Part shown: positions 8,424 through 34,457 of the stretch, piece by piece
How the letters are laid out: each line of letters begins with the position of its first letter
Position numbering within the stretch: the stretch's first letter is position 1
From: a virus
Taxonomy: Duplodnaviria; Caudoviricetes
Length of the DNA stretch: 53,119 nt
Reading direction: 5' to 3' (one strand)
Virus record (IMG/VR): IMGVR_UViG_3300044608_001820
Coordinates: 1 to 53,119 of that record
The notes under the pieces: generated by a model
Databases searched by the model: none
Seen by the model: the letters and a program-made list of their open reading frames with translations, nothing else
Told to the model about the DNA's origin: nothing
Program-made: the position numbers and the translations under genes

Positions 8424-8474
8424 TGGTGACGTTTGCCAAAGTCCCATTCTAACAAAAGGTAGAACAAGTGAACC

Positions 8475-8532
8475 TGTGACAGTTGGAGAAGTGGCACGTA
8501 AAAAGTCACCGATCCCCGTCATGGAGTACAAT
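8475..8532 (+). promoter_or_regulatory. phage promoter P4 (degenerate LexA-like box at 8461-8474)
   Basis: GTGACAGTT-GGAG-AAGTGGCAC-N29-TACAAT. Confidence 0.7.
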
Positions 8533-8538
8533 AGATCT

Positions 8539-8742
8539 ATGAACAACCCCATTGCACGAGCTCGAGCCCTTTACGACAAGGGTTCCCGAGAGAACATCGT
8601 CCAGTTCCTGCAGGAGATGGACCCCAACGGTTCTTGGACTGACGAGGCATCTTACGCCGAAGGACTGGAGCCTCTGACCTACGATGAGGCACTCCTCGAA
8701 CTCGAGGACATGATCAAGGAACTGGAAGCCGTGCCCGCCTGA
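8539..8742 (+). CDS. hypothetical protein (probably leaderless)
   Basis: ATG 6 nt after -10; coupled to the topoisomerase gene. Confidence 0.6.
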   Translation: MNNPIARARALYDKGSRENIVQFLQEMDPNGSWTDEASYAEGLEPLTYDEALLELEDMIKELEAVPA

Positions 8743-12435: not shown

Positions 12436-12626
12436 TCGAAGAACGCGACTGGAAACACTACGTCACTCTCATCGGACTTGAGATTGAGGACACAATTCCT
12501 AATCCGTCCGAGATAGAGACTCTCGATGCGGTAAGATTGCTGGTGAGAGAAGTCAACGCTCTTCGCAAAGCTATGGGACTTCCGTCATACAAGGATCTTG
12601 CTAAAGAGGAGGAAAAAGATGGCTAA
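12432..12626 (+). CDS. hypothetical protein
   Basis: coupled ORF. Confidence 0.55.
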   Translation: MIEERDWKHYVTLIGLEIEDTIPNPSEIETLDAVRLLVREVNALRKAMGLPSYKDLAKEEEKDG

Positions 12627-13131
12627 GGTTGTCCTGTCGCTGGGCGGTAACATCAACCGTTTAGACACGTCAATCGAGTTAGTTAAACAAAATCCAGGAT
12701 CGTATCTCTTCATCTCGTCAGAGAGTGACCCCGCTGCGTGCTTACAAAAAGTTCACGATGCCGGACTGGATCCCACGCGTGTCTTTCTTAACTACTACGC
12801 CTGGGACACGGTTACTAACTTCACGAACACGAAGCGCCCGCTATCCACACTCAATCCGGACGAGATTCTCGTCGTCACTGACGGGTATCACATGCTTCGG
12901 GCGATGACGATCGGACGTATCATCTACTTCGGTTCGAATGTAAAACTCACCGAGCATCCGAGTTCTCCAAAGGATCACAGTGAGCCTCTCACGGAGGTCA
13001 TCACTGACGCGATCCGAGCACTCATCTCTCGTTTTCTGGGCATGACGATCTTCAGTCAAAATGTCTATGACGATCGTATTCCCTACTACTATGACTGTTA
13101 CTACGTAGCACGGACACTTCAAGGAGGCTGA
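12619..13131 (+). CDS. YdcF/DUF218-family protein
   Basis: LSLGG...R, AWDTVTNF, VVTDGYHMLRA. Confidence 0.75.
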   Translation: MAKVVLSLGGNINRLDTSIELVKQNPGSYLFISSESDPAACLQKVHDAGLDPTRVFLNYYAWDTVTNFTNTKRPLSTLNPDEILVVTDGYHMLRAMTIGRIIYFGSNVKLTEHPSSPKDHSEPLTEVITDAIRALISRFLGMTIFSQNVYDDRIPYYYDCYYVARTLQGG

Positions 13132-16851: not shown

Positions 16852-16892
16852 GTTCACATTTAGACAGATCTTTGATAATCAAAGAACTTGAT

Positions 16893-16965
16893 CGGGATGT
16901 AGCCCAGCGGAAGAGGCCATGGACTTAAAATCCATTCAGGGTGGGTTCGAATCCCACCATCCCGA
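16893..16965 (+). tRNA. tRNA-Leu(TAA), short variable arm
   Basis: cloverleaf; ATGGA-CTTAAAA-TCCAT. Confidence 0.88.
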
Positions 16966-16971
16966 TCGAAT

Positions 16972-17052
16972 GCCCAGATGGTGGAATGGTATACACAGCA
17001 CGCTTAGAACGTGCCGCTGCAAGGCATGGAGGTTCGAGTCCTCTTCTGGGCA
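16972..17052 (+). tRNA. tRNA-Leu(TAG)
   Basis: GCACG-CTTAGAA-CGTGC; long variable arm. Confidence 0.92.
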
Positions 17053-17090
17053 TAGTCCAATCTTTGGACTAAATATACTCAACTTAGGGT

Positions 17091-17163
17091 AATACAAGTG
17101 TACTTGTGACACTTGCCTAAGTGTCCACTAAAAGTCCCAAGGGGCGCGTGGATCCTGTATATT
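17091..17163 (+). promoter_or_regulatory. LexA-like box (17091-17104) + phage promoter P10
   Basis: AATACAAGTGTACT then TGTGACACTT-GCCT-AAGTGTCCAC-N29-TATATT. Confidence 0.72.
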
Positions 17164-17171
17164 GATTTCAT

Positions 17172-17211
17172 GGTTGGGGGAGACACCCCGCCGAACCTCG
17201 AAAACTTCATA
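17172..17211 (+). promoter_or_regulatory. boxB-like hairpin + rrn boxA-like antitermination site
   Basis: hairpin followed by GAACCTCGAAAACTTCATA. Confidence 0.65.
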
Positions 17212-17224
17212 AGCAATATTCTCT

Positions 17225-17296
17225 GGGTCGCTAACTCAGTGGTAGAGTAGTCGGCTCTTAACCGATCTGTCCTCGGTTCGAATCCGAGGCGACCCA
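17225..17296 (+). tRNA. tRNA-Lys(CTT)
   Basis: GTCGG-CTCTTAA-CCGAT. Confidence 0.93.
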
Positions 17297-17298
17297 TC

Positions 17299-17402
17299 GA
17301 GACCGGATCACGGGGTGCCTGGGCGGCACTCGGAAAGAAAAGCCTCCAGTAGGAACTTTCCAGTGACGGGTTCGATTCCCGTCCATTCCACTTTCCGGTC
17401 TC
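17299..17402 (+). ncRNA. tRNA-like RNA (Ala-type acceptor, T arm, no canonical anticodon arm)
   Basis: GGGGTG/CATTCC-A stem with G3.U70; GACGGG-TTCGATT-CCCGTC; flanking 9-bp inverted repeat. Confidence 0.55.
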
Positions 17403-17413
17403 AAGGCGCCGCT

Positions 17414-17486
17414 AGTACCCCTGTACTAGGGACACTTCACCAAGTGTCCACTAAGCGCGCCACCCGCCCCTTGGGCGGTGTATATT
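17414..17486 (+). promoter_or_regulatory. LexA-like box (17414-17427) + phage promoter P11
   Basis: AGTACCCCTGTACT then AGGGACACTT-CACC-AAGTGTCCAC-N29-TATATT. Confidence 0.75.
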
Positions 17487-17494
17487 AGATTCAT

Positions 17495-17538
17495 GGTTGG
17501 GAGGGCGATCACCGCTCCTCCGACCCGAACCTCGAAAA
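17495..17538 (+). promoter_or_regulatory. boxB-like hairpin + boxA-like site
   Basis: GGTTGGGAGGGCG...CGCTCCTCCGACC followed by GAACCTCGAAAA. Confidence 0.65.
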
Positions 17539-17552
17539 TCTAAATTCTTCTC

Positions 17553-17624
17553 GGTCCTATCGACTAGCGGTTAGGTCACAACCCTTTCAAGGTTGCAGCA
17601 CGGGTTCGAATCCCGTTGGGACTA
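17553..17624 (+). tRNA. tRNA-Glu(TTC)
   Basis: CAACC-CTTTCAA-GGTTG. Confidence 0.92.
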
Positions 17625-17768
17625 CTGGGAGTGAAGCTGAATGACTTCGGTCAGGGAGGTCACTCCACCCAGTTCTTGGATAAAACGCGGGGACTAGGGA
17701 CGCCCGCCTTTTGGTAACCTCTGGGGAGGAGGTTAATGACGGCTGCACCGTCCCAGCCAAAAGTCCAT
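17625..17768 (+). ncRNA. unassigned structured RNA
   Basis: UUCG-capped hairpin plus a multi-stem domain. Confidence 0.45.
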
Positions 17769-17842
17769 GACCCATTAGTGTAGCGGTCTATCACGCCACC
17801 CTGTCACGGTGGAGATCACGGGTTCGAATCCCGTATGGGTCG
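17769..17842 (+). tRNA. tRNA-Asp(GTC)
   Basis: CCACC-CTGTCAC-GGTGG. Confidence 0.93.
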
Positions 17843-17843
17843 T

Positions 17844-17972
17844 TGGGTTGCTGCCCGATATGAGAAACACTCTTTTCTGCCCCGGTGGAATTGGTGAAAA
17901 GTCGGAATTACCCTTGCCCCGTCTCTTGGGGATGCGAATTGGGGAAAGGTAAAGGGAAGAGACAGCAACCCA
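17844..17972 (+). ncRNA. unassigned structured RNA with pseudoknot
   Basis: 10-bp closing stem; loop GTCTCTT complementary to AAGAGAC. Confidence 0.5.
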
Positions 17973-17976
17973 TATT

Positions 17977-18048
17977 GGAATCGTAGCTCAGTGGTAGAGC
18001 ACTCGGCTGATAACCGAGCGGTCACAAGTTCAAATCTTGTCGGTTCCA
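17977..18048 (+). tRNA. tRNA-Ile(GAT)
   Basis: CTCGG-CTGATAA-CCGAG. Confidence 0.93.
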
Positions 18049-18052
18049 CTCT

Positions 18053-18125
<73 letters not shown>

Positions 18126-18149
18126 TCGAGAATCTTTCGATTCTCTTAC

Positions 18150-18226
18150 TGTGGAGTAGAGCAGTCCGGTAGCTCGCCAGGCTCATAACCTGGAGGTCGC
18201 AGGTTCGAATCCTGCCTCCGCCACCA
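18150..18226 (+). tRNA. tRNA-fMet(CAT), initiator type
   Basis: 1:72 mismatch, CCAGG-CTCATAA-CCTGG, encoded CCA. Confidence 0.88.
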
Positions 18227-18227
18227 T

Positions 18228-18299
18228 TGGCCTGTAGTTCAGCGGTAGAACGCCTGACTGTTAATCAGGTTGTCGCAGGTTCGATCCCTGCCGGGCCAG
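18228..18299 (+). tRNA. tRNA-Asn(GTT)
   Basis: CCTGA-CTGTTAA-TCAGG. Confidence 0.93.
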
Positions 18300-18300
18300 T

Positions 18301-18749
18301 TCCGCTCTGCTTGGTCTGGAAATGTCCGGGTCAAGTATCGGATCTAAGTCCTAGTTCTGGGGCCCTCCATCGGTGAGGATCACCCTTCCTAGGCCGGGGG
18401 ACTGATCACCCCCGCCCGTTTGACCCACTGTCGGGTCGCGATGGCGGGCAGTTGCCATCGTTCCATTGCGGTTTGCCTCACCGTCCCGCGTTCTTCGGAT
18501 CGCCCGAGGGAGAACGAGGCAATCTCCGTTCTAGACACCGGAGTCGTATGGAATACGTCGTTAAGTTCCCGAAACGGCCACGCACACATTCGTTAAAGTG
18601 TGGACTAGCAGATTGCTCCTAGCTCGCACTAGCTGTGGGCCACCGAAAGGTGACCAATCCCGGTCTCTGCCCGTATGGGGAGCAACTAGCTAGAAAAGCC
18701 CCCACCTCTGTACGTCCTTGAGGCGTTTCATGTGTTAAATGGGGCCTTC
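18301..18749 (+). ncRNA. large (~450 nt) highly structured non-coding RNA candidate
   Basis: many helices with G.U pairs, a GAAA tetraloop and long-range complementarity; no credible ORF. Confidence 0.55.
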
Positions 18750-18823
<74 letters not shown>

Positions 18824-18845
18824 TTGCCTTCAAGGAAGGCACAAT

Positions 18846-18936
18846 GAGAGGGTGGCTACTGTTGGCAATACGTGTGGCTGCGGTCTGTAAAACCGTTACA
18901 TAGGAACCATCGGGGGTTCGATTCCCTCCCCTCTCA
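18846..18936 (+). tRNA. tRNA-Tyr(GTA), atypical D arm
   Basis: GCGGT-CTGTAAA-ACCGT. Confidence 0.82.
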
Positions 18937-18939
18937 TCC

Positions 18940-19014
18940 GCCGCCATAGCTCAGTGGTAGAGCACCTCTTTGGTAAAGAGGAGGTCTCGAGTTCAAGTCT
19001 CGATGGTGGCTCCA
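18940..19014 (+). tRNA. tRNA-Thr(GGT)
   Basis: CCTCT-TTGGTAA-AGAGG; CCA. Confidence 0.93.
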
Positions 19015-19086
19015 GGTCGCTTAGCTCAGCGGTAGAGCTCTTGCCTTACAAGCAAGCTGTCACTGGTTCGATCCCAGTAGCGACCA
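19015..19086 (+). tRNA. tRNA-Val(TAC)
   Basis: CTTGC-CTTACAA-GCAAG. Confidence 0.93.
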
Positions 19087-19210
19087 TTGGTAGTCGTTGT
19101 GCAGATAGCACAGAAAGACGCCAAAGGGGGTGCAACAAGGAACGTTGCATTAAACGAAAGGTCCCGTAGGCCACATCGTAGATTATCGTTGGTGGACACC
19201 TTCGCCCTGC
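19087..19210 (+). ncRNA. unassigned structured spacer RNA
   Basis: three hairpins, one with an internal GAAA bulge. Confidence 0.35.
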
Positions 19211-19212
19211 TC

Positions 19213-19285
19213 GGGGAATTAGCTCAGTTGGTAGAGCGCCTGCTTTGCAAGCAGGCTGTCAGGAGTTCGAGTCTCCTATTCTCCA
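19213..19285 (+). tRNA. tRNA-Ala(TGC)
   Basis: CCTGC-TTTGCAA-GCAGG; G3.U70. Confidence 0.95.
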
Positions 19286-19305
19286 TCGTTCCTTCGGGAA
19301 CACCC

Positions 19306-19380
19306 GCGGATGTAGCTCAGTGGTAGAGCATCTCCTTGCCAAGGAGAAAGTCGAGGGTTCGAATCCCTTCATCCGCTCCA
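19306..19380 (+). tRNA. tRNA-Gly(GCC)
   Basis: TCTCC-TTGCCAA-GGAGA; CCA. Confidence 0.95.
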
Positions 19381-19383
19381 CTT

Positions 19384-19466
19384 GGAGGGAGTCCGGTTGG
19401 TCGAGGAAAGCGTCTTGAAAACGCCTGGGTGTTAAAGCCTCACGGGTTCGATTCCTGTTCCCTCCG
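19384..19466 (+). tRNA. tRNA-Ser(TGA)
   Basis: GCGT-CTTGAAA-ACGC; variable arm. Confidence 0.85.
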
Positions 19467-19468
19467 CT

Positions 19469-19541
19469 GTGGTCGTAGCATAATGGTTAATGCGCCAGAT
19501 TGTGGATCTGGTTTATGTGAGTTCAAATCTCATCGGCCACC
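19469..19541 (+). tRNA. tRNA-His(GTG)
   Basis: CCAGA-TTGTGGA-TCTGG; C73; T at position -1. Confidence 0.9.
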
Positions 19542-19543
19542 CC

Positions 19544-19615
19544 GCTCGATTAGCTCAGTGGTAGAGCAACTGTTTCGTAAACAGTAGGTCGTCGGTTCAA
19601 GTCCGACATTGAGCT
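19544..19615 (+). tRNA. tRNA-Thr(CGT)
   Basis: ACTGT-TTCGTAA-ACAGT. Confidence 0.92.
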
Positions 19616-19632
19616 TCTGCTTTCGCAGAAAT

Positions 19633-19704
19633 GTTTCGGTAGCCAAGCGGTAAGGCGAAGGTCTGCAAAATCTTCATTCGTCGGTTCGATTCCGACCCGA
19701 AACT
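19633..19704 (+). tRNA. tRNA-Cys(GCA)
   Basis: AAGGT-CTGCAAA-ATCTT; U73. Confidence 0.92.
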
Positions 19705-19723
19705 TTGGCCGCGTGCCAAATAA

Positions 19724-19798
19724 TCTGGAGTCGCCAAGCGGTAAGGCAGCGGGTTTTGGTCCCGCCATTCGTGGGTTCGAATCCTACCTCCAGAACCA
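19724..19798 (+). tRNA. tRNA-Gln(TTG)
   Basis: GCGGG-TTTTGGT-CCCGC; CCA. Confidence 0.92.
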
Positions 19799-19800
19799 AT

Positions 19801-19874
19801 GTCCGTGTGGCGCAATTGGTAGACGCGCTACTTTGAGGTGGTAGTTGTTGGAGGTTCGAGTCCTCTCACGGACA
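19801..19874 (+). tRNA. tRNA-Leu(GAG), short variable arm
   Basis: CTACT-TTGAGGT-GGTAG. Confidence 0.88.
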
Positions 19875-19876
19875 TT

Positions 19877-19948
19877 GTCAGAATAGTGTAGTTGGAAACA
19901 CGGCGGTCTCCAAAACCGTAATCCGGGGTTCGAATCCTCGTTCTGGCG
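19877..19948 (+). tRNA. tRNA-Trp(CCA)
   Basis: GCGGT-CTCCAAA-ACCGT. Confidence 0.92.
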
Positions 19949-19952
19949 CCTT

Positions 19953-20026
19953 GCTCCCCTAGCTCAGCGGATTAGAGCGTCTGACTACGGATCAGAAGGT
20001 CGAAGGTTCGAATCCTTCGGGGAGCG
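19953..20026 (+). tRNA. tRNA-Arg(ACG)
   Basis: TCTGA-CTACGGA-TCAGA. Confidence 0.93.
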
Positions 20027-20029
20027 TGT

Positions 20030-20103
20030 GTGCCCTTAGCTCAGCGGATTAGAGCAACCGCCTTCTAAGCGGTCGGTCATAGGTTCAAATCCTATAGGGC
20101 GCG
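20030..20103 (+). tRNA. tRNA-Arg(TCT)
   Basis: ACCGC-CTTCTAA-GCGGT. Confidence 0.93.
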
Positions 20104-20107
20104 CCTT

Positions 20108-20181
20108 GAGAGATTAGCTCAGTCTGGTAGAGTACGGGTCTCATATGCCTATGGTCGGTGGTTCAAATCCACCATCTCTCA
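20108..20181 (+). tRNA. tRNA with CAT anticodon (Ile2 or elongator Met)
   Basis: GGGT-CTCATAT-GCCT; identity ambiguous. Confidence 0.8.
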
Positions 20182-20184
20182 TCC

Positions 20185-20258
20185 GCCCTCTTAGCTCAGT
20201 GGAATAGAGCATCTGGCTTCGAACCAGAAAGTCGTAGGTTCGAATCCTACAGGGGGCA
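20185..20258 (+). tRNA. tRNA-Arg(TCG)
   Basis: TCTGG-CTTCGAA-CCAGA. Confidence 0.9.
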
Positions 20259-20262
20259 CCTT

Positions 20263-20352
20263 GGAAGATTGGCCGAGTGGTTTAAGGCGACGGTTTGCTA
20301 AACCGTTGTGTCGGTAACGGCACCACTGGTTCGAATCCAGTATCTTCCGCCA
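20263..20352 (+). tRNA. tRNA-Ser(GCT)
   Basis: ACGGT-TTGCTAA-ACCGT; long variable arm; CCA. Confidence 0.93.
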
Positions 20353-20424
20353 GGGCGATTAACTCAGAGGTAGAGTACTTCCTTGACACGGAAGAAGTCA
20401 CTGGTTCGAATCCAGTATCGCCCA
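20353..20424 (+). tRNA. tRNA-Val(GAC)
   Basis: CTTCC-TTGACAC-GGAAG. Confidence 0.93.
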
Positions 20425-20426
20425 TC

Positions 20427-20499
20427 GCTTCCTTAGCTATCTGGTGAAAGCGCCCGACTCATAATCGGAATCAGGCGAGTTCGATCCTCGCAGGAAGCA
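20427..20499 (+). tRNA. tRNA with CAT anticodon (elongator Met or Ile2)
   Basis: CCGA-CTCATAA-TCGG. Confidence 0.82.
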
Positions 20500-20504
20500 C
20501 CTAA

Positions 20505-20576
20505 GGGTTATTAGCTCAGCGGTAGAGCATCCGGCTTTTAACCGGTCGGTCCCCAGTTCGAATCTGGGATGACCCA
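20505..20576 (+). tRNA. tRNA-Lys(TTT)
   Basis: CCGG-CTTTTAA-CCGG. Confidence 0.92.
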
Positions 20577-20594
20577 TCGTTCCTCACGGAACGA

Positions 20595-20799
20595 CAATCC
20601 AGTTCGGACACGGGTTCGACTCCCGTATGCTCCATTGAATAATTTTGTTGAAGTAGTTTCCCTAAGAAAGGAACTGTGACCACAAAACTATTCATCATGG
20701 GGCATAAAGGCTTTCGACGGGCTGGAGGGTTCTGAGAACAAATCTCAACAACATCGTACGTTTCGAACGCGTTGCCGTCGCCGCCTGAGCGAACAACCC
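20595..20799 (+). ncRNA. ssrA: permuted two-piece tmRNA
   Basis: acceptor piece ending ATGCTCCA (20634) precedes the coding piece GGGGCAT...TTCGAC (from 20699); tag LNNIVRFERVAVAA* at 20744-20788. Confidence 0.88.
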
Positions 20800-20851
20800 G
20801 TGACGATATCTGGGAGGGACATTTGTGCCCTCCCTTTCTCTAAGACTAACA

Positions 20852-21472
20852 ATGCCACTCCTCAATCGGGCTGACGGGAAATCGATCAATTTTATCCACA
20901 TTCCGCGCACAGGCGGAAGATTTGTCGTAGAACTTTTTCGGAGTAACGGGTTCGACTTCACCTTCCCTGAAGACCATCGATTGCACTGGTCAAAGACAGT
21001 TGATGGGCATGAGGTGATGCATTTTCATGCGGAGTTGATGACCAGATATTTGAATCTCGTTGGCATTAGATCATTTACGATCGTTAGAAATCCGATATCC
21101 AGGTTTATCTCCGCGGCTCCTGCGATGTTAGACTTGTTGCACGCGCCGCTAACTGAAATATCTCCCGAGGAGCTGGAGAAAAGTCTAAGCGCAGCCCTCG
21201 CTTTTGCGCCAAATTGGTTTAGACCTCAGCATGAGTTCATACTTCCTGGCACCTTAATTTGGAGATATGAAGATGGACTCGATGAGAAATTTTTTGATTG
21301 GTTACGCAGAGTCGTGGGGGTTTCTCTCTCATTAAATCACAACATAGCTTTGGGATCTCACCCGCATGACAGATCACACAAGCCGTATTTGCCTGAACGT
21401 CTTATACCGACTCTAAAAAAGTTTTACGCCAGAGACTTTGAGTTACTAAACTCTCGTCATAGCTACATTTAA
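20852..21472 (+). CDS. sulfotransferase family 2-like protein
   Basis: FIHIPRTGG (5'-PSB-like), FTIVRNPISRFIS (3'-PB-like), WFRPQHEF. Confidence 0.75.
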   Translation: MPLLNRADGKSINFIHIPRTGGRFVVELFRSNGFDFTFPEDHRLHWSKTVDGHEVMHFHAELMTRYLNLVGIRSFTIVRNPISRFISAAPAMLDLLHAPLTEISPEELEKSLSAALAFAPNWFRPQHEFILPGTLIWRYEDGLDEKFFDWLRRVVGVSLSLNHNIALGSHPHDRSHKPYLPERLIPTLKKFYARDFELLNSRHSYI

Positions 21473-22263: not shown

Positions 22264-22337
22264 GCCTCCATAGCTCAGCTGGATAGAGCAACTGTTTTGT
22301 AAACAGTAGGTCGCGGGTTCAAGTCCTGCTGGGGGCT
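22264..22337 (+). tRNA. tRNA-Thr(TGT)
   Basis: ACTGT-TTTGTAA-ACAGT. Confidence 0.92.
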
Positions 22338-22381: not shown

Positions 22382-22924
22382 ATGCAAGTTCCTTATATCG
22401 ATTTCATCTTCCGCGAGGGCGGTGAGTTTGTGACCCGCACTTCGAAGGAGATCTTCAGCGGCAAGCGTGTGGTTGTGTTCGCCCTACCTGGCGCCTTCAC
22501 ACCTACCTGCACCGAACAACAACTCCCCGGGTTCGAAGCCTCCTACGACGAGATCAAGTCGTTTGGCGTCGATGAGATCTATTGCCTCGCCGTGAATGAC
22601 GCATTCGTGATGAATGCCTGGTTCAAGGATCTAGGCATCACTAAGGTGAAACCTCTGCCCGATGGCAATGGTTCGTTCACCGCCAGTGCTGGCATGGCTG
22701 TAGCCAAGACTAACCTCGGTTTCGCTTCGCGTAGCTGGCGTTATGCCGTGGTGATCAACGACGGCGCCATCGAGTGGGCTGGCGTGGAGCAGGGCAAACG
22801 TGACAATGCCTCCGATGATCCGTACACCGAGTCCACACCCGAGCGTGTGATCCAATATCTTCAAGCCAAGCAAAATCAAGGCAGCGAGGCTAATGTCAGT
22901 GAGATCCTGACCGCTTCGAGGTAA
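22382..22924 (+). CDS. peroxiredoxin (Prx5/type II)
   Basis: LPGAFTPTC, VNDAFVMNAW, DGNG, RSWRYA. Confidence 0.92.
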   Translation: MQVPYIDFIFREGGEFVTRTSKEIFSGKRVVVFALPGAFTPTCTEQQLPGFEASYDEIKSFGVDEIYCLAVNDAFVMNAWFKDLGITKVKPLPDGNGSFTASAGMAVAKTNLGFASRSWRYAVVINDGAIEWAGVEQGKRDNASDDPYTESTPERVIQYLQAKQNQGSEANVSEILTASR

Positions 22925-23717: not shown

Positions 23718-23968
23718 CTGAGAACAACATCCCCAATCCCTGGGAGAACAAACCAGAGATAAACATCGGAGGATCTCCCATTTTAGACCATACGTTTACC
23801 ATCACTGGCAAACCTCTCGAACTAAAGTTACCGAACTATGTCGGTTATTGGGATGTGATTCCACCAGATGATTCTGTTCACTTTCGAATTTACAGACCCA
23901 ATCGACCGAACTTCTTTCACAGGCTAATGAACAAGTGGCTGATCGGGTGGGAGTGGAATGATACGTGA
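23714..23968 (+). CDS. hypothetical protein
   Basis: GTGA coupling. Confidence 0.55.
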   Translation: MTENNIPNPWENKPEINIGGSPILDHTFTITGKPLELKLPNYVGYWDVIPPDDSVHFRIYRPNRPNFFHRLMNKWLIGWEWNDT

Positions 23969-24594
23969 CAGCTATTCGATTCATCGGAGATGTTCACGGC
24001 AAGTGGAAACGCTATGAGAAGACTATTAAGGATGCTCCGAGGTCAATCCAAGTCGGAGACTTTGGGATCGGATTCTATAATCCTCGTACGGAAACTTATA
24101 CGCGCCCACCGTACGATAAAATGTCAAAGGGCGACCACAAGTTCATTCGAGGAAACCATGATAACCCCAAGCAGTGCCGTGATCACCCGTATTGGATCGC
24201 GGATGGGTCGCTTATTGATGAGAGTATCTTCTGCATCGGAGGAGCTAAGTCGATCGATACGCACCTTCGTACGGAAGGATGGGATTGGTGGGCGGATGAG
24301 GAGCTCAACTACTCTGAATTCCTCCAACTCATTCAGACGTACGAGGAAGCGAGACCGTCTATCGTCGTTTCTCACGACGCTCCGGAAGATATGGTGAATC
24401 ACATATTGAAGACGCGGGGCGCGTATAAGTACGACATTCCAAGTATCACACGCCAATTCTTCGACAATCTCCTGCATGTGCACAAACCGGATCTCTGGAT
24501 TCACGGACATTGGCACATCGATCACCACACGGTGTTTAAGGGCGTAGAATATATTGGTCTCGGCGAACTCTCATATGTTGATTTAGACCTCTGA
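23965..24594 (+). CDS. calcineurin-like metallophosphoesterase
   Basis: GDVHG, GDFG, GNHD, SHDAP, GHWH. Confidence 0.88.
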   Translation: MTAIRFIGDVHGKWKRYEKTIKDAPRSIQVGDFGIGFYNPRTETYTRPPYDKMSKGDHKFIRGNHDNPKQCRDHPYWIADGSLIDESIFCIGGAKSIDTHLRTEGWDWWADEELNYSEFLQLIQTYEEARPSIVVSHDAPEDMVNHILKTRGAYKYDIPSITRQFFDNLLHVHKPDLWIHGHWHIDHHTVFKGVEYIGLGELSYVDLDL

Positions 24595-25884: not shown

Positions 25885-26610
25885 ATGCTTAACGCTACTA
25901 AGTCCCCGCCTAAACAGCGGGGTGTTTTATTTTCTGACCACGAACTTGATGAACACTCAGTGGTTGTCATCGGCGACATTCACGGGTGCGCGCAGGCACT
26001 GCGAGAACTGCTGATAGAGATAATCAATACCAACTGTCAAGTCGTATTCGTAGGCGACCTAGTCGATCGCGGCACTCACTTCAAGTCCGTAGTCACTATC
26101 GTGCACTCGATGTGTACTGAACCCGAGAAGTGGGGGATCAGAAGCGCAATCTGCCTCATGGGCAACCACGAGAGAATGATTGTTGATGCCCGTAATGGAG
26201 ATGATTTCCGTCTGTGGCGTCAAAATGGCGGCCGTCTTGACGACTTTCTATTCATCTCTGACACTGACCGTTGGGAGTGGCTGAGCGGGCTGCCGCTATA
26301 CTATGAGCACCCGACAAAGATTGAGTGGGACGGCGAGAAACTCGACTTACTCGTGACGCACGGATCGGTAGCTCCCGGCGTCAGTCTCAATCAACAAGAC
26401 CCAGAGACTCTCTACTGGGGCCGGGACATTCAGGGATTCTCGCAAAATCACCTGACGGTGCATGGTCACACTATCTGTCGCCATGGCGAACCACTACAGT
26501 ACGACACTCCGACAGGAAAAGTTCTCCGGATCGACACAGGTTCATATGCCACTGGCATAGTGACCGGGGTCGCCTTTCGGGAAGTCGTTACTTCTGGCAA
26601 ATCTGAGTAA
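25885..26610 (+). CDS. PPP-family Ser/Thr phosphatase / metallophosphoesterase
   Basis: GDIHG, GDLVDRG, GNHE, HGHT, IDTG. Confidence 0.9.
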   Translation: MLNATKSPPKQRGVLFSDHELDEHSVVVIGDIHGCAQALRELLIEIINTNCQVVFVGDLVDRGTHFKSVVTIVHSMCTEPEKWGIRSAICLMGNHERMIVDARNGDDFRLWRQNGGRLDDFLFISDTDRWEWLSGLPLYYEHPTKIEWDGEKLDLLVTHGSVAPGVSLNQQDPETLYWGRDIQGFSQNHLTVHGHTICRHGEPLQYDTPTGKVLRIDTGSYATGIVTGVAFREVVTSGKSE

Positions 26611-27229: not shown

Positions 27230-27826
27230 TTGATACTCGACCAAACCACCCGAGACCTGATGTTTTTCTCCGAAACTCCCGCTCCCTATACTCGGGATGG
27301 TTGGCTCATTCAAGAGCAACTTCCCACGGAGTGGCATATTCTCGTCGCGGCAATCTTATTAAATCAAAGCAAGCGTACCGCCGCTTGGGACGATATGCTG
27401 TGGAGGCTATTCGAAAAGTGGCCGACTGCCTCAGCCCTTTCCGTTTCCGATACTTCTCTTGAGGAGTTATTGAAACCGCAGGGTTTTTCGAACATGAAGG
27501 CTAAACGCCTTCGGCGAATGTCATCGGAGTATTTAGTGTGGGACCACAAGAATGCTCGGGATCTCTACGGTTGTGGGCAGTACGCTTACGATTCGTGGAG
27601 AGTTTTTGTTAAGGGCGACCGTCCTAAGCCACACGAGATTAACGACAAAGCCTTAGTTAAATTTCTGGAGAGGTATCATGCGGGCTGGCGAATTGGACGG
27701 CCTCTACCACCACTTTTTAGAATCAGCGAGACGCCTAAACCTCGAACAGCAGTTCGAAGAAAGGTATCGGTACTATCGACAAAGGTGTTGGGCTCGGAGA
27801 GAGTGCATCCTGGTAGCAGCAACTGA
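27230..27826 (+). CDS. HhH DNA glycosylase, MBD4-like
   Basis: WHILVAAILLNQS, LLKPQGF, LYGCGQYAYDSWRVF, DKAL. Confidence 0.8.
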   Translation: MILDQTTRDLMFFSETPAPYTRDGWLIQEQLPTEWHILVAAILLNQSKRTAAWDDMLWRLFEKWPTASALSVSDTSLEELLKPQGFSNMKAKRLRRMSSEYLVWDHKNARDLYGCGQYAYDSWRVFVKGDRPKPHEINDKALVKFLERYHAGWRIGRPLPPLFRISETPKPRTAVRRKVSVLSTKVLGSERVHPGSSN

Positions 27827-29476: not shown

Positions 29477-32407
29477 ATGCGAACAAAAACTTATCAGATG
29501 GTAACGTCTATGAACTTGAATGAGCAAGGTTATCCTGTACTCAACAACGATCTCCATAAAAAGCTCTTCGGTTCCGCCAGCCGCCCCGTACCTAAGAGCT
29601 TCATGCTCGAACGGTCGAGGCGGCTTCTTAGTAGGTTTGACATCCCCGTGCCGGTAGACTATCCGGATGGGATGTATGATGGTGACTTGCCATTTCCTGA
29701 ACTAATTGGTGGAAACATTGAGTCTCACTTTGAGGCTATGGCTGGGGAGTTCGTCGATGACTATAAGTCATACGCTGACCAATTCTCCACCGCAAAACTT
29801 CCAAAGATCCCTGGCTACGATGATTTCATCTTTCAGCCTGGGTGGACTCGCTATACGTTCGTAAACAACAAGTGGGTCACTGAGAAAGTCCCGTATCCTC
29901 TCGAAAAAGCATTCACGTTCGATACGGAGACCTTCGTTACTGGAGGCGCATTCCCGGTTATTGGCACTGCCTTGTCGGAGGAAGCATCGTACATTTGGCT
30001 AGCCGCCGAGATGTGTGATCCCTCTCTGCCTGTCGATGAATGGACTCAACATGACCTTATCCCACTTGGTGATGGGAACTTCATTGTCGGTCATAACATT
30101 TCCTATGACCGCGTTCGCGCTCGTGACGGCTACACGCTTGATAAAACGGAGCCTGAGAATTTCTACTTCGACACGCTCTCGGCGCACATTGCTGTCTCGG
30201 GTCTTGCGTCGGGTCAACGGTGGCTTTACGTCCTTGCCGGGAAGGATCCAGACTCCCTCACGGAGGAGGAAAAGAAGAAGCTCCGCTTCCGTCCACGATG
30301 GGCAACCGAGGGTGCGACAAACTCCCTAGTGAATGTGTATAACTTCCACGTCGCGGCCGTGCGTGAGTACTTTGGCGAGGAAGTCCACTTCATGGAGGAT
30401 GCTGATAAGGACATCCGGGATGTGTTCGTGAAGGCAACCGAGATGCATCAGTTGGCTAATCGCCGTGATCTTCTCGAGTACGCAATGCTTGACGCCTTCT
30501 ACACATCCGAGTTGTTCCAGGCTCTGTGGCGTAAGTACCTCGAGTCAACTCCTTCGAAGGTAGCACTCGCGGGCCACATGTTCCTCAATGGATCACGTAT
30601 TCCTGTCTCCACGGATTGGCCGCAATGGATCGATCAGGTGGAGAAAGTCTTCGCGAAGTACAACCGTGAGATGTCTGACATCTGTCACGAGTTGATTCAG
30701 AAGTACGTGGATGAATGGCGTGTAGAGCTCGAGAAGGATATTGCCGCCGTACAATCTGCACTGGATGGCGAAGACCGAGCTGACATCATCGCCGCAGCCG
30801 GACTCGAGAAGAAGAAAGTCGTGAAGATCACTGACGTTCTCAAAGGTCTGGATAAGAACGCGGTGTTTAATTGGACTCATCACGCTGATGCCTGGGTTCG
30901 GAAGGATCCATGGATGAGCCAACTTGATTGGACTCCACGTGGATATGCCGGGAAGTATGCCTACATGCCAAAGTGGGCGAGTAAGTATCTGGCGGATACT
31001 TCAGAGCGGATCACGACCAAAGCCCAGGTCTCTCACCTTCTGCTTAAGCTGAAGTGGGAAGACACACCGATTCAACTCACAAAGAGCAAGGGCTGGTGCT
31101 TCCGCACCGAGGAAGGAAAGCTGGAGAAGATTCCGCACCCGAAAGGCAATGGCGACAATGTTGGTATTCTCCTGTCGAAAGACTTTCTAGTCGATATGGA
31201 GAATGGTCGTCTGAGCAGTGACCTTCCCGAGGCGCGAAGGGCGCTTGATATTGCAAATGCCACATCGTATTGGACGTCAGTGCGTAAGCGTGTTCATGAC
31301 CGAATCTTCATGGATGTGGAAAATCCGTACGGGAAGAGTTGGTATATGATGATGCCGGAGATCATCGCTCACGGCACGGTGACTCGCCGAACTGTGGAGA
31401 GCCTGATGGTTACGATGTGTTCTACCAAGAAGCATCGGATTGGCACCGAGCTTAAGACTCGTATTCAGTGCCCTCCTGGCTGGAAGATCGTTGGTGCTGA
31501 CTTCGACGGTCAGGAACTTCAGATCGCTAGCATCTACGCGGATGCCTGGGAGGGAGGATTCATCGGTGCATCGCCAATGGCTCACACGGTGCTGTCCGGA
31601 TCGAAGGAAAAGGGAACGGATGCCCACACCAAGCTCGCTAAGGCAATTAACACCAACCGTGATGTTGCTAAGGGCGTGGGCTTCGCAATGCTATACGGCG
31701 CGGGTGTTCGCACCATCGCTAATACCATCAAGAAGACTTACAAGGACCGGTCCGCAGCTGAACTCCGTCAGTTCGGTAACCGAGCGCTCTCATTCAAGAA
31801 GGGTCAGAAGACTCCCGATGGTCACTATGAGGGAGGGAGTGACAGCGGCTGCTATAACTACATGGAAGGTATCGCCCTTCGCACGAAGATTCCTACGCTT
31901 CCCTGTCTCGGAACCAAGATCTCAACTGCACTCCGCCCTGCGGCAGTAGGCGATGACTTCCACACCGGTCGGATCAACTGGACTATTCAATCGTCCGGCG
32001 CTGAGATGCTTGCCGTGATCCTTACCGCCTCACATTGGTTGGCTCGTAGGTTCAAGATTCCCGCTCAGTTCATCCTCTCGATTCACGACGAGACATGGTT
32101 CATGGTCCCGGAGAAGTACGCTGAGAGCTTTGCTGTATTATTCCAGATGGCTCACCTCTACTCCTGGGCACGCTTCCAAGCAAGCGTAAAGATGAATGAT
32201 GTGCCGCTAAGCCGGGCATTCTTCTCTTCCGTGGCAATCGATGATCGGCTTCGTAAATCAGTTCGAGAGTGTACTGTGACACCCTCAAATCCCGAGGGTG
32301 CCGATGAACCCGACGGCAATGAGTATTCGATGGCTCAAATGGCGGAGCTCGGGTGGGTGAAGAAGCTTAAGACTCGAGCGGATATGGTTGCGAAGGGGTT
32401 GCTTTGA
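29477..32407 (+). CDS. DNA polymerase family A, mitochondrial Pol-gamma-like
   Basis: FDTE, VGHNISYDR, DTLSAHIAVSG, GTVTRR, VGADFDGQEL, RDVAKGVGFAMLYGAG, IHDE. Confidence 0.93.
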   Translation: MRTKTYQMVTSMNLNEQGYPVLNNDLHKKLFGSASRPVPKSFMLERSRRLLSRFDIPVPVDYPDGMYDGDLPFPELIGGNIESHFEAMAGEFVDDYKSYADQFSTAKLPKIPGYDDFIFQPGWTRYTFVNNKWVTEKVPYPLEKAFTFDTETFVTGGAFPVIGTALSEEASYIWLAAEMCDPSLPVDEWTQHDLIPLGDGNFIVGHNISYDRVRARDGYTLDKTEPENFYFDTLSAHIAVSGLASGQRWLYVLAGKDPDSLTEEEKKKLRFRPRWATEGATNSLVNVYNFHVAAVREYFGEEVHFMEDADKDIRDVFVKATEMHQLANRRDLLEYAMLDAFYTSELFQALWRKYLESTPSKVALAGHMFLNGSRIPVSTDWPQWIDQVEKVFAKYNREMSDICHELIQKYVDEWRVELEKDIAAVQSALDGEDRADIIAAAGLEKKKVVKITDVLKGLDKNAVFNWTHHADAWVRKDPWMSQLDWTPRGYAGKYAYMPKWASKYLADTSERITTKAQVSHLLLKLKWEDTPIQLTKSKGWCFRTEEGKLEKIPHPKGNGDNVGILLSKDFLVDMENGRLSSDLPEARRALDIANATSYWTSVRKRVHDRIFMDVENPYGKSWYMMMPEIIAHGTVTRRTVESLMVTMCSTKKHRIGTELKTRIQCPPGWKIVGADFDGQELQIASIYADAWEGGFIGASPMAHTVLSGSKEKGTDAHTKLAKAINTNRDVAKGVGFAMLYGAGVRTIANTIKKTYKDRSAAELRQFGNRALSFKKGQKTPDGHYEGGSDSGCYNYMEGIALRTKIPTLPCLGTKISTALRPAAVGDDFHTGRINWTIQSSGAEMLAVILTASHWLARRFKIPAQFILSIHDETWFMVPEKYAESFAVLFQMAHLYSWARFQASVKMNDVPLSRAFFSSVAIDDRLRKSVRECTVTPSNPEGADEPDGNEYSMAQMAELGWVKKLKTRADMVAKGLL

Positions 32408-32579: not shown

Positions 32580-32756
32580 ATGAGCAAGAAAAAGGCACAA
32601 TTTTACAATCTAACGCTTCTGGCTAATAATAGACCGTACGTCTCGATCACTTTCTTCGATCACAAGGAGCGCCGAATGCTAAGCTCTGTTGATGTTGTTC
32701 TCAACCTCGACTACCATGACGACGCAACCATCGGATCCTTTGTCACCTCTCGTTAA
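32580..32756 (+). CDS. small hypothetical protein (not in ORF track)
   Basis: AAGGA RBS; MSKKKAQFY. Confidence 0.45.
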   Translation: MSKKKAQFYNLTLLANNRPYVSITFFDHKERRMLSSVDVVLNLDYHDDATIGSFVTSR

Positions 32757-32761
32757 TCAAC

Positions 32762-33337
32762 ATGTCAATGCTAATCATCGTTTCTGGTCCAGACCGAGTT
32801 GGTAAGTCAACTCTCATTGATTCCATGGCTCAGGAGCTAGGAGTGGACAATACGTTCGTAGCTCACCACGGTCCTCCGCCAAAGCATAACGACAATATCT
32901 TTGACATGTACCGGGACACTCTTCAGGACTGGAGGTGGTCTAAGAAACCTTATGCGATCTTCGATAGGGCATACCCATGCAGCTATATTCTTGAGCAGCA
33001 CCGCCGCCACAATGCCGGACATTTCGAGGACATCATTGACCTGGAGATCGAGACATCCGAGGCTGTGGACTCTGTGGTTCACCTTGGCGTCTTTCGCCCA
33101 TGGTATTGGTCAGCTCCCCTGCACCTTGAGGAGATCCGAGAGGAGGAGCCTGGCGCCGCTCTATGGTACATCCGCGACCAGTACATCGCACGCATGCAGG
33201 AGCACGAGATCTATACTCAGCAGCTCCTTAACTTCTACGAGAACATTACGATGTTCCCGAACTATCAGATCCACAATCAAGATACCAATGGACGGGCGGC
33301 ACTTGCCAACTGTCGCGAAGCTCTACGTAAATCCTGA
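32762..33337 (+). CDS. dNMP/thymidylate kinase-like P-loop protein
   Basis: SGPDRVGKST, IFDR. Confidence 0.75.
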   Translation: MSMLIIVSGPDRVGKSTLIDSMAQELGVDNTFVAHHGPPPKHNDNIFDMYRDTLQDWRWSKKPYAIFDRAYPCSYILEQHRRHNAGHFEDIIDLEIETSEAVDSVVHLGVFRPWYWSAPLHLEEIREEEPGAALWYIRDQYIARMQEHEIYTQQLLNFYENITMFPNYQIHNQDTNGRAALANCREALRKS

Positions 33338-33552
33338 TGCCATTTCCTATGCCACGCGATCCTAACTTCATGCTTGAATACTGTCGAGAGTGGGTGGATG
33401 ACGCCAACTATCGATATGATCACGGAATGCGATCGATGGCACAGGAAAGTATACGAACGGCGGCACAACTATATGTTCAGTTGCCGCCGGGATTTTCTGA
33501 TTTAGAGTTTGAAAAGTATTACGAGGAAACACTCAAGAAGGTTTACGGATGA
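33337..33552 (+). CDS. hypothetical protein
   Basis: coupled ORF. Confidence 0.55.
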   Translation: MPFPMPRDPNFMLEYCREWVDDANYRYDHGMRSMAQESIRTAAQLYVQLPPGFSDLEFEKYYEETLKKVYG

Positions 33553-34457
33553 GACTACAAAGTTTGGAAGCAAAAACACAGCTTGGTCACGTTCTTCATG
33601 CCGGTGATTACGCGATTAAGCATGATAATTGGGACTATATCTACAGCGAGTATCTCTATGAAATCATGACTAACGGCGAGAAGTTCGTCGGTAGGAATGG
33701 CGAGACTCGCGCGCTCTTCGGTTGTTCAGCGAAGGTTGATCTTCGTGTTGGATTCCCGCTCACCCGCCTTCGGAAGATGCCATGGATGAATATCCTTCGG
33801 GAACTAAAGTTTGACATCGGGTTCAACACCAACGTCGAAGCTCTTGGTCCCGCTAAGCACTTCTGGGATTTTCTCGCCGATGAGAACGGTGAGCTGGGTG
33901 CCTCCGCTTACTGTCGGCAGTGGCGCCAGTGGCCACCATCATCACCGGGATACGAGATGCCTAACGAGCGACTCGTTACTGACAGGTCTATCGATCAGCT
34001 CAAAGATGTGATCGTCAAACTCATTGAGCAACCTAACACCCGTCAAGGCACTGTCATCACTCACAATCCGACTGCGATCGATCCAGCGTGCCCACCCTGT
34101 CACATTGCGATGCAGTTTGCCCCATCGGTGGATGGCTGGTTGGATCTGATGGTGCCCGCCCGGTCTAACGATATGGTTGTCGGGTTCCCGCTGGATATTG
34201 CCCGCTACGCCTTGATTCTCAAGATTGTAGCGATGAGAAGCGGTAAGGCTGCTCGTTTCGTGTACATGCCAAGCGCTAACTCGCATATCTACCAAAATTG
34301 CTATGATATTGTCGATGAGATGCTTGACCGAGAGCCTAAGCCTGAGTGTCAAGTTCGCCTCACCCGTTGCCCTGGAAGCCTCTCAGATGTAAATCTTGAG
34401 GACTTTGAGCTAACTGATTACGACCCGCATCCCGCGATTAAGATCGCAGTTAACTAA
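33549..34457 (+). CDS. thymidylate synthase-fold enzyme, probable dCMP (hydroxy)methyltransferase
   Basis: GFPL, YCRQWR, DQL, PPCH, RSNDMVVGFPLDIARY, HIY. Confidence 0.85.
   Translation: MRLQSLEAKTQLGHVLHAGDYAIKHDNWDYIYSEYLYEIMTNGEKFVGRNGETRALFGCSAKVDLRVGFPLTRLRKMPWMNILRELKFDIGFNTNVEALGPAKHFWDFLADENGELGASAYCRQWRQWPPSSPGYEMPNERLVTDRSIDQLKDVIVKLIEQPNTRQGTVITHNPTAIDPACPPCHIAMQFAPSVDGWLDLMVPARSNDMVVGFPLDIARYALILKIVAMRSGKAARFVYMPSANSHIYQNCYDIVDEMLDREPKPECQVRLTRCPGSLSDVNLEDFELTDYDPHPAIKIAVN

Follow-up and report, generated by a model that had tools for sequence, protein, structure and literature searches.

Background and locus studied

In thymidylate synthase (ThyA), Asn177 (E. coli numbering, used throughout) sets the specificity for dUMP, and its change to Asp gives methylation of dCMP, as stated in PMC8670742, a source represented here, like the other papers cited by identifier, by excerpts. 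Among the 433 metagenomic homologs of that work, positions 177 and 147 best separated contigs with modified cytosine from unmodified ones. The Asn177-to-Asp rule for dCMP preference is also given in PMC13326640, according to which an acidic residue at position 143 accompanies hydroxymethyl products and Asn at position 169 marks 5-hydroxy-dCMP synthases. IMG/VR has been screened for contigs with Asp at this ThyA position, and 5 of the 7 homologs tested, plus the enzyme of phage Xp12, gave 5-methyldeoxycytidine in vivo (bioRxiv 10.1101/2024.12.05.627091). In this study, a ThyA-fold enzyme with Asp at position 177, encoded close to a P-loop kinase, was analysed in IMG/VR virus record IMGVR_UViG_3300044608_001820; the whole record of 53,119 bases is called the window below. 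The Asp177 principle itself is established and has already served to mine IMG/VR, and the reading presented here is an application of the published rule, not a new idea.

The enzyme is predicted to act as a one-carbon transferase on C5 of dCMP and the kinase to phosphorylate its product. This pairing of a dCMP-directed C5 transferase with a nucleotide kinase is supported, agreeing with every sequence-level test that was run, and methylated or hydroxymethylated cytosine is probably incorporated into the DNA of the phage, as is known from other phages. An earlier note on this DNA, made from its letters and ORFs, had proposed a dCMP methylase or hydroxymethylase with a kinase for its product; that proposal is strengthened by the fixed Asp, the loss of Gln165, the presence of ThyX and a dCMP deaminase in relatives, and the co-inheritance of the kinase. 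It had also placed the kinase two genes upstream of the enzyme and downstream of a polymerase, which is the order found, with a 71-aa open reading frame (ORF) in between. Coordinates are given in Table 1.

The ThyA-fold enzyme

The enzyme ORF matched PF00303 (Thymidylat_synt) with an E-value of 1.1e-54 and 185.8 bits against a cut-off of 24.3, covering profile positions 2–264 of 266, and also matched PHROG 160. Its best solved relatives were bacterial thymidylate synthases (6auj, 1.2e-40; E. coli chains, approximately 1e-36), and the best 60 of 120 PDB matches were all named thymidylate synthase except one designed hydrolase. With TIGR03284 the score was 140, over the cut-off of 108.35; the other seven NCBIfam thymidylate synthase models listed all remained below theirs (NF002497, 168.8 versus 327). 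Homologs are named 'thymidylate synthase' and the copy in cyanophage S-TIM5 is annotated ThyA, so that the expectation of a thyA call by automatic annotators was correct. Megablast of positions 29477–34457 against 50,697 phage records detected no near-identical DNA.

The translation contains ...PARSNDMVVGFPLDIARY.... In HMMER alignments with E. coli chains 2tsc and 1an5, the Asp of FPLDIARY (Asp216) was opposite Asn177, and MAFFT alignment with E. coli ThyA (NC_000913) gave the same pairing; the two alignments agree with the earlier note in setting the GAT codon at the Asn177 position. The catalytic PPCH and HIY motifs, described there as intact, were found so: Cys146 and His147 are kept, and R21, E58, W80, Y94, R126, R166, S167, D169, H207, and Y209 are also retained. 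Substitutions relative to E. coli ThyA are Q165A, L143C, C168N, W83L, F176L, and R127Q. A canonical dUMP-specific ThyA has Asn177 held by Gln165, together with Leu143; the window enzyme has Asp177, Ala165, and Cys143 instead. Gln165, the hydrogen-bond partner of position 177, is likewise replaced in the enzymes of Xp12, T4, and RB69. Its C-terminal tail is complete, reaching as far as that of E. coli ThyA in the alignment, and the enzyme has approximately 30 additional N-terminal residues and a 12-residue insert after Trp101-Pro.

Conservation of Asp177 and placement on a tree

Homologs were collected at E ≤ 1e-10, giving 1064 sequences, of which 120, with identities of 58–82%, were listed. 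Asp was present at position 177 in all 120 homologs among the matches listed, within the motif PLDI in 119 and PLDM in 1. In the best 150 sequences of a representative library, the position was occupied by Asn in 120, by Asp in 26, and by a gap or other residue in 4. A FastTree tree was built from 156 rows, 5 of the initial 161 having been dropped for fewer than 200 filled core columns. The window enzyme fell into a clade of 22 rows (SH-like support 99), all with Asp, which includes the ThyA of the cultured cyanophage S-TIM5, 40% identical to the window enzyme. On this tree, the Asp label requires at least 5 to 9 changes.

Residues around the active site set the clade apart. Position 143 is Cys in 16 rows, Ile in 3, Gln in 2, and Val in 1, whereas Leu occupies it in 119 of 120 Asn-type representatives. 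At position 165, Ala, Gly, or Ser is found in 20 of the 22 rows, compared with Gln in 98/120 Asn-type representatives and Leu or Met in the Xp12, T4, and RB69 enzymes. Asn or Gln stands at position 168 in 18/22 rows versus 10/120 Asn-type representatives. His147 is kept in 20 rows, and Asp169 in the window enzyme and 21/22 rows of the clade. Ten further Asp-type representatives lie outside the clade, 8 with Leu143 and 5 with Pro147, the residue of Xp12; the Xp12 enzyme is also outside, on a branch 1.74 long. From these alignments, the window clade appears to be a separate, more derived Asp lineage. What would be new is this distinct lineage with its own residue signature, spanning a cultured cyanophage genus, and carrying a dedicated kinase family as well as an MBD4-like glycosylase common to the Xp12-group phages with 5-methylcytosine (5mC).

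The upstream kinase and its linkage to the enzyme

The kinase ORF gave only weak AAA-type P-loop matches in Pfam, and no Pfam, NCBIfam, or PHROG family was above threshold. Within its family of 14 members, PF03976 (PPK2) was touched by 7, at best with 2.1e-5 and never above cut-off, and PF02223 (Thymidylate_kin) by 4 at E ≤ 1, the best being 0.003, with no match for the window kinase. When the family profile was compared with PDB, PPK2 chains were matched with 1.8e-5 over residues 2–70. An AlphaFold model based on the 14-sequence alignment had a pLDDT of 90.3 and a pTM of 0.86. By VIA-align, its top match was the YorR-type B. subtilis structure 2axp (Z 15.2, rmsd 3.4, 161 residues), followed by 3kb2 (YorR; Z 14.7). 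Thymidylate kinases (Z 14.0–14.1, rmsd 3.4–3.7, 163–172 residues aligned) and PPK2 (Z 14.2, rmsd 4.0, 178 residues aligned) were within about one unit of the top and were therefore treated as tied. Foldseek returned the same families with E-values of approximately 1e-5. The window kinase is 40–100 residues shorter than the PPK2 chains matched.

The P-loop GPDRVGKST (32786–32812) and the motif FDRAY are invariant across the family and presumably correspond to the catalytic P-loop and DR motifs of thymidylate kinases. ESM Atlas gave viral hypotheticals plus one 'putative deoxynucleoside kinase' cluster at 0.93, which serves as a lead only. The modelled fold is that of nucleotide and nucleoside kinases, and the protein is predicted to phosphorylate modified dCMP.

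The junctions of the kinase, the 71-aa ORF, and the enzyme overlap as ATGA at 33335–33339 and 33549–33552, and therefore the three genes look translationally coupled. The 71-aa ORF is conserved in 8 related loci with 58–79% identity; it had no match in Pfam or PHROGs, and its Atlas neighbours were only viral hypotheticals.

In total, 35 related viral loci were found, 15 near the window's clade and 20 S-TIM5-like. The kinase was directly upstream of the enzyme in 13 of the 15 near-clade loci; the fourteenth (L058/L014) was seen from the kinase side, and the fifteenth is truncated by the end of its contig. The pair was intact despite rearranged neighbours in loci L013, L016, and L020 (kinase, enzyme, gyrase, ..., polymerase). 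No kinase was within 10 kb of the enzyme in the 20 S-TIM5-like loci; in all 5 large relatives searched, the family was nevertheless represented elsewhere in the genome, in S-TIM5 by AEZ65699.1, a protein annotated as hypothetical. A search of viral contigs with the profile of the kinase family yielded 18 loci. The enzyme search had already led to the contigs of 14 of these. On the 4 other contigs, a CPPCH/Asp enzyme followed the kinase closely in 2 and was missing in 2, one of them a 15.8-kb fragment and the other a 119-kb record that is 56% complete. Thus, an Asp-type enzyme was present on 16 of 18 kinase-bearing viral contigs. By tblastn, the window kinase was not found in T-even phages. These results indicate that the kinase is co-inherited with the enzyme.

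Proposed pathway and its product

In the pathway proposed, the enzyme, retargeted from dUMP to dCMP, would use methylene-tetrahydrofolate as the one-carbon donor and modify dCMP at C5. The likeliest product would be 5-methyl-dCMP, formed by reductive chemistry of the thymidylate synthase type that yields dihydrofolate. The co-transcribed, translationally coupled kinase would phosphorylate the modified dCMP, host kinases would complete the nucleotide to the triphosphate, and the Pol-gamma-like phage polymerase would incorporate the modified dCTP in place of some or all cytosine. Synthesis of dTMP would proceed separately by dCMP deaminase and ThyX, both seen in fuller relatives, and the MBD4-like glycosylase would remove T from T:G mispairs arising by deamination of 5mC. 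Judged by residues and gene content, a dCMP methylase giving 5-methyl-dCMP is the best explanation of the enzyme, with roughly an even chance of being right; it is rather unlikely that the product is neither 5-methyl- nor 5-hydroxymethyl-dCMP.

Alignment with ThyA, T4 gp42, and the Xp12 enzyme showed Asp177 to be common to the window enzyme and the latter two, as had been stated in the earlier note for gp42; the likeness to gp42 does not extend to residue 143, which is non-acidic in the window. The reference residues are D177/N143/P147/D169 in Xp12, D177/D143/T147 in T4 gp42, D177/E143/N169 in RB69 gp48, and N177/D143 in SPO1 gp29, which acts on dUMP. Cys143 speaks for a methyl product, an acidic Asp or Glu being present in T4 gp42, SPO1 gp29, and RB69 gp48, the verified hydroxymethylases and hydroxylase aligned. 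So does the full C-terminal tail, which is missing in T4 gp42 and RB69 gp48, and so does Pro175, as in E. coli and Xp12, versus Arg in T4, Gln in RB69, and Gly in SPO1. Residues near C5 are identical to those of E. coli at 8 of 12 positions, versus 6 of 12 in both Xp12 and T4; these surroundings, the most ThyA-like among the cytosine enzymes compared, were counted for methyl, as was the MBD4-like glycosylase held in common with the Xp12 group. The window itself yielded no alpha-glucosyltransferase (AGT) and no glycosyltransferase of the GT1 or GT2 family. AGT homologs were missing from each of 11 records of its clade, among them G001, which is bounded by terminal repeats, and GT1 and GT2 were each found in 0/8 records. 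Records G013 and G015 (84–86% complete) have the enzyme, and no AGT was found in them.

A 5-hydroxy-dCMP synthase of the RB69 gp48/DLP3 gp80 type was considered and rejected, as Asp169 is kept and the D169N signature is lacking.

The enzyme may instead be a dCMP hydroxymethylase following the logic of T4 gp42, a possibility that we hold tentatively. Water, not hydride, would then resolve the exocyclic methylene, the kinase would act on 5-hydroxymethyl-dCMP, and the DNA would contain 5-hydroxymethylcytosine (5hmC), with glucose attached in TIM5-like phages and either bare or with some other decoration in the window's clade. Cys143, the full tail with Pro175, and the lack of glycosyltransferases in the window's clade argue against it. 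In its favour, the S-TIM5 sister clade, whose ThyA homolog has the active-site signature of the window enzyme (D177, C143, H147, A165, and N168), carries a T4-type DNA AGT in 5/5 cultured TIM5-like records and 2/4 large S-TIM5-like metagenomic records. This AGT matched PF11440 with 37 bits versus a cut-off of 25, and its identity to T4 a-gt was 23.5%, with 86% of the length covered (E 8e-12); the other 645 records matching it were nearly all T-even-type phages. Furthermore, Asn168 is common to T4 gp42 and SPO1 gp29 (Gln in RB69 gp48), and the window enzyme has lost Leu143, which is otherwise nearly invariant, along with two aromatic residues, Trp83 and Phe176. Dihydrofolate reductase (DHFR) was found in 0/5 records, which would fit a reaction that regenerates tetrahydrofolate. 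The two clades, that of the window and that of S-TIM5, may differ in product.

These features weigh against a methylase, and further points count against the reading as a whole. Since the Xp12 methylase has Asn143, the rule for position 143 is not strict, and His147 is kept, unlike Pro147 of Xp12 and the trend reported for modified contigs. The enzymes of Xp12, T4 (gp42), RB69 (gp48), and SPO1 (gp29) are on long branches of a tree made with FastTree only. The MBD4-like gene was detected in 5/24 related records and is thus accessory, not universal; cyanophage S-TIM54 carries both it and the AGT gene, so that the glycosylase does not discriminate between methyl and hydroxymethyl. By CheckV, the window is approximately 24% of a genome. 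In the 5 records searched, no dCTPase-like MazG and no dUTPase were found, and PRA-PH gave no match above cut-off, with two weak matches in S-TIM5-like records; together with the missing DHFR, this leaves full replacement of cytosine and the recycling of folate unexplained. A TET/JBP dioxygenase was found in 0/5 records, but control genomes gave no signal either. Finally, a homolog of the window's C5 cytosine DNA methyltransferase-like protein, 58–65% identical, lies 1–4 kb from the enzyme on the opposite strand in 18/20 S-TIM5-like loci and differs less between the two clades than the ThyA homolog does; phmmer against PDB gave no match for this protein. Such a methyltransferase would lack a substrate if cytosine were fully replaced before replication, which hints that replacement may be partial or the role of the protein different. 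Its conservation points to some cytosine in the DNA being left unmodified.

The AGT gene of S-TIM5 (JQ245707.2, 6754..8034, L078) directly follows the gyrase gene, and AGT is also present in records G012 and G016. The window differs here, with small ORFs that lack a Pfam match after its gyrase-like gene.

dTMP supply in relatives

ThyX was found in 10 of 22 related records, including S-TIM5, G001 (149.9 kb, direct terminal repeats, enzyme 77% identical to that of the window), and G016 (100% complete). A dCMP-deaminase-family gene was present in 6 of the 22, namely all six of 118 kb or more, and each of the 5 large records had a single ThyA-family gene. In the window, a quarter of a genome, neither ThyX nor dCMP deaminase was found. 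With a deaminase plus ThyX route in the lineage, the Asp enzyme is not needed for dTMP; as dTMP supply is covered in this way in the large relatives, the enzyme must do something else.

This bears on the explanation that the enzyme is an ordinary synthase converting dUMP to dTMP with a tolerated Asp, or that 5-methyl-dCMP is a mere intermediate to be deaminated to dTMP, which we consider improbable. It would fit the largely intact ThyA catalytic apparatus, His147 included, and the TIGR03284 score above cut-off; a deaminated intermediate would fit the dCMP-deaminase-family gene of the relatives, and formation of thymidine nucleotides by deamination of 5-methyl-dC nucleotides has been described (bioRxiv 10.1101/2024.12.05.627091). 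However, an ordinary synthase would hardly have Asp in every row of the clade and every homolog listed, with Gln165 lost too, and would be a redundant second dTMP route beside ThyX, which occurs even in the most complete records. The dedicated, co-inherited kinase and the scores of the seven other NCBIfam models, far below cut-off, also argue against it, and the deaminase gene is not adjacent to the enzyme, lying approximately 77 kb away in G001 and 90 kb in S-TIM5.

The MBD4-like glycosylase

Pfam gave only a weak HhH-GPD match for the ORF upstream of the polymerase. By phmmer against PDB, its residues 26–140 matched the MBD4 glycosylase domain with 1.2e-16, and its YDSWRVF was aligned with NDSYRIF of MBD4, in which the Asp of the NDSY motif is presumably catalytic. 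Phage homologs were detected in only 14 of the 50,697 records, comprising the Xp12 group (phages of Xanthomonas, Stenotrophomonas, and Janthinobacterium) and cyanophage S-TIM54. The Xp12 copy (QNN97216.1; MT664984, 46973..47455, L003) is 36% identical to the window protein, and is itself MBD4-like (4.8e-14). A single gene stands between it and the dCMP methylase, the order of the row being DHFR, deaminase, enzyme, hydrolase, and glycosylase. The excerpts of the AXL1 paper describe the same gene row and call its copy an ENDO3c protein of unclear function. A literature search found no paper naming this phage glycosylase MBD4-like or giving its function. A glycosylase of the type that removes T or 5-hydroxymethyluracil (5hmU) from opposite G would be useful where 5-substituted cytosine is abundant in the genome.

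A single in-frame TAG was seen in the MBD4-like gene of record G008 (C1:32864-33400, L072) and another in the AGT gene of G012 (C1:111247-112521, L079), both otherwise full-length matches. The TAGs could be due to sequencing error, a pseudogene, or read-through.

In thymidine-hypermodifying phages, a hydroxymethylase of the ThyA family occurs with a kinase and an enzyme of the HhH glycosylase fold (PMC5889632), and one of each of these genes lies within 7 kb in the window; a cytosine version of that system, in which 5-hydroxymethyl-dCMP would be made, the kinase would phosphorylate the 5-hydroxymethyl group in DNA like 5-HMUDK, and the HhH protein would swap the phosphate, is nevertheless very improbable, because nucleotide kinases are matched along the full length of the kinase model, hhalign with PaMx11 gp49 covered 27 columns (Walker A) only (one sequence, its identity as 5-HMUDK being a guess), profile comparison of the kinase with PaMx11 gp50 gave nothing, the HhH protein matches MBD4 at 1e-16 with the presumed catalytic Asp aligned but is not similar to PaMx11 gp46 (E 0.26), its homolog sits in Xp12, whose DNA is described as having 5mC for all cytosine, and its gene was not found in 19/24 related records. 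A triad of the 5-HMUDK type was thus not supported by the comparisons with PaMx11 gp46, gp49, and gp50. The gp49 gene (NC_028770, 39217..39786; L081:17218-17787), annotated as 'terminase small subunit', has a Walker A motif and lies beside gp46–gp48 inside the thymidine hypermodification cluster; it may encode a kinase rather than a terminase subunit.

Other features of the window

The tRNA array encodes tRNAs for nearly all amino acids, and because of it a 4-kb stretch has no ORF of 90 aa or more; no tRNA with a CTA anticodon was found in it. A permuted tmRNA called by ARAGORN at 20545..20965 overlaps tRNA-Lys and the next ORF and is probably a false call. A sulfotransferase-like ORF follows right after the array. 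In the replication-side half of the window lie two calcineurin-like metallophosphoesterases, one of them NinI-like, as well as a DUF218 protein and a peroxiredoxin of the redoxin/AhpC type. The window's polymerase has the mitochondrial Pol-gamma-type exonuclease domain (PF18136) that has been described for S-TIM5 (PMC10087341). With approximately 52% GC, the window's clade is richer than its TIM5-like relatives at roughly 41%.

Table 1. Positions of the features of the window discussed in the text
Feature	Position	Strand	Remarks
C5 cytosine DNA methyltransferase-like protein	7197..8552	-	PF00145 1.9e-19; phrog_116 8.8e-32; motifs PPC, ENAP, QERTR
Gyrase-like gene	8742..10727
DUF218 protein	12598..13131
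Array of 30 tRNA genes	16892..20576	+
Sulfotransferase-like ORF	20825..21472		PF03567 1e-5; phrog_3347 'galactose-3-O-sulfotransferase' 3.9e-21
tRNA-Thr	22264..22337
Redoxin/AhpC-type peroxiredoxin	22382..22924
Calcineurin-like metallophosphoesterases	23965..24594, 25885..26610
HhH-GPD protein, closest to MBD4 glycosylase domain	27230..27826	+	candidate T:G or 5hmU:G mismatch glycosylase
Family-A DNA polymerase with mitochondrial Pol-gamma-type exonuclease domain	29477..32407	+	PF18136 7.5e-59; PF00476 2.4e-11; phrog_22619 2.6e-232
P-loop kinase	32762..33337	+	191 aa; thymidylate-kinase/deoxynucleoside-kinase/PPK2 fold; predicted kinase for modified dCMP
71-aa ORF between kinase and enzyme	33337..33552	+	ATGA overlap with both neighbours
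ThyA-fold enzyme	33549..34457	+	302 aa; predicted dCMP C5 one-carbon transferase, from PF00303, alignments, residues, and clade
CPPCH motif	34089..34103	+	second Cys equivalent to catalytic Cys146; first Cys replaces Leu143
Base-specificity codon GAT, Asp216	34194..34196	+	opposite E. coli Asn177

Implications

If the reading is correct, the DNA of this phage group would be protected from many restriction enzymes and would give abnormal results in analyses that are methylation-sensitive or of the bisulfite type. This would extend to the cultured TIM5-like cyanophages, which have the enzyme and the kinase as well as ThyX, the deaminase, and the C5 methyltransferase; as S-TIM5 is in culture, the prediction is directly testable. 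No statement on base modification in TIM5-like phages was found in the literature searched, including the excerpts of PMC10087341; Sabehi et al. 2012 (PNAS) was not covered. With His147, Cys143, and Asn168, the enzyme clade falls between the residue rules for methyl and hydroxymethyl products and could sharpen them. The co-inherited kinase represents a family without assignment that now has a clear candidate substrate. The presence of the MBD4-like glycosylase in the Xp12 group too points to a repair role linked with modified-cytosine genomes.

A wider proposal, which we think unlikely to hold in full, is that the Asp-type enzymes with Cys143, His147, Ala165, and Asn168 form a distinct old lineage in TIM5-like marine cyanophages and related large phages with Pol-gamma-like polymerases, working with an unrecognised kinase family between thymidylate kinase and PPK2. 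Should this kinase use polyphosphate, the supply of modified nucleotide would be tied to the polyphosphate store of the host. An entire cultured cyanophage genus would then have globally modified, unreported cytosine, and the MBD4-like glycosylase would be a recurring repair companion of genomes with 5-substituted cytosine, seen independently in the Xp12 group.

Comparison with known systems

The closest known systems include the thymidylate-kinase-like 'nucleotide kinases' RB69 gp45, DLP3 gp78, and RL38J1 gp214, which lie near cytosine-directed ThyA homologs as in the window. According to PMC13326640, the top Foldseek match of DLP3 gp78 is YorR 3kb2, which is the second match of the window kinase (Z 14.7). 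The RB69, DLP3, and RL38J1 systems make 5-hydroxy-dCMP (D169N), against which Asp169 of the window argues, and the kinases are likened by fold and position only.

The metagenomic Asp177 homologs (MetaGPA, PMC8670742; bioRxiv 10.1101/2024.12.05.627091) share the diagnostic residue with the window enzyme, and the same inference was drawn from it. In these studies, enzymes within 3 kb of a deaminase were selected and position 147 is reported as the second discriminating site; the window differs in its kept His147, in the distance of the deaminase, and in having a kinase as neighbour. An Asp177 ThyA with an otherwise canonical active site, reported to methylate dCMP, has His147 and a full C-terminal tail like the window enzyme, which adds L143C, Q165A, C168N, W83L, F176L, R127Q, the N-terminal extension, and the insert.

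T4 gp42 is similar in having Asp177, Asn168, and a replaced Gln165, and together with the gp1 deoxynucleoside monophosphate kinase it follows the same logic of an enzyme plus a kinase before replication. It differs in Asp143, Thr147, and the missing C-terminal tail, and was not among the best 60 of the 120 PDB matches of the window enzyme. T4 also has alpha- and beta-glucosyltransferases, whereas none was found in the window's clade and a homolog of its AGT occurs in the S-TIM5 sister clade.

The deoxycytidylate methyltransferase of Xp12 (QNN97214.1, annotated as thymidylate synthase) is approximately 30% identical to E. coli ThyA, lies on a separate long branch, and has Asn143, Pro147, Ser168, and Phe83 in place of Cys, His, Asn, and Leu in the window. 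The enzyme gene of Xp12 stands in an unbroken row with those for DHFR, deaminase, hydrolase, and glycosylase, whereas the window has the orphan kinase as neighbour, with no DHFR found and ThyX in relatives. Both genomes carry an MBD4-like HhH-GPD gene, and Xp12 has a dCMP-deaminase-family gene, as do relatives of the window. The two enzymes share the ThyA fold, Asp177, Asp169, the replacement of Gln165, and the C-terminal segment, so that the signature of an Xp12-type dCMP methyltransferase, D177 and D169 with a non-acidic residue at 143 (Cys in the window, Asn in Xp12), is found in the window enzyme.

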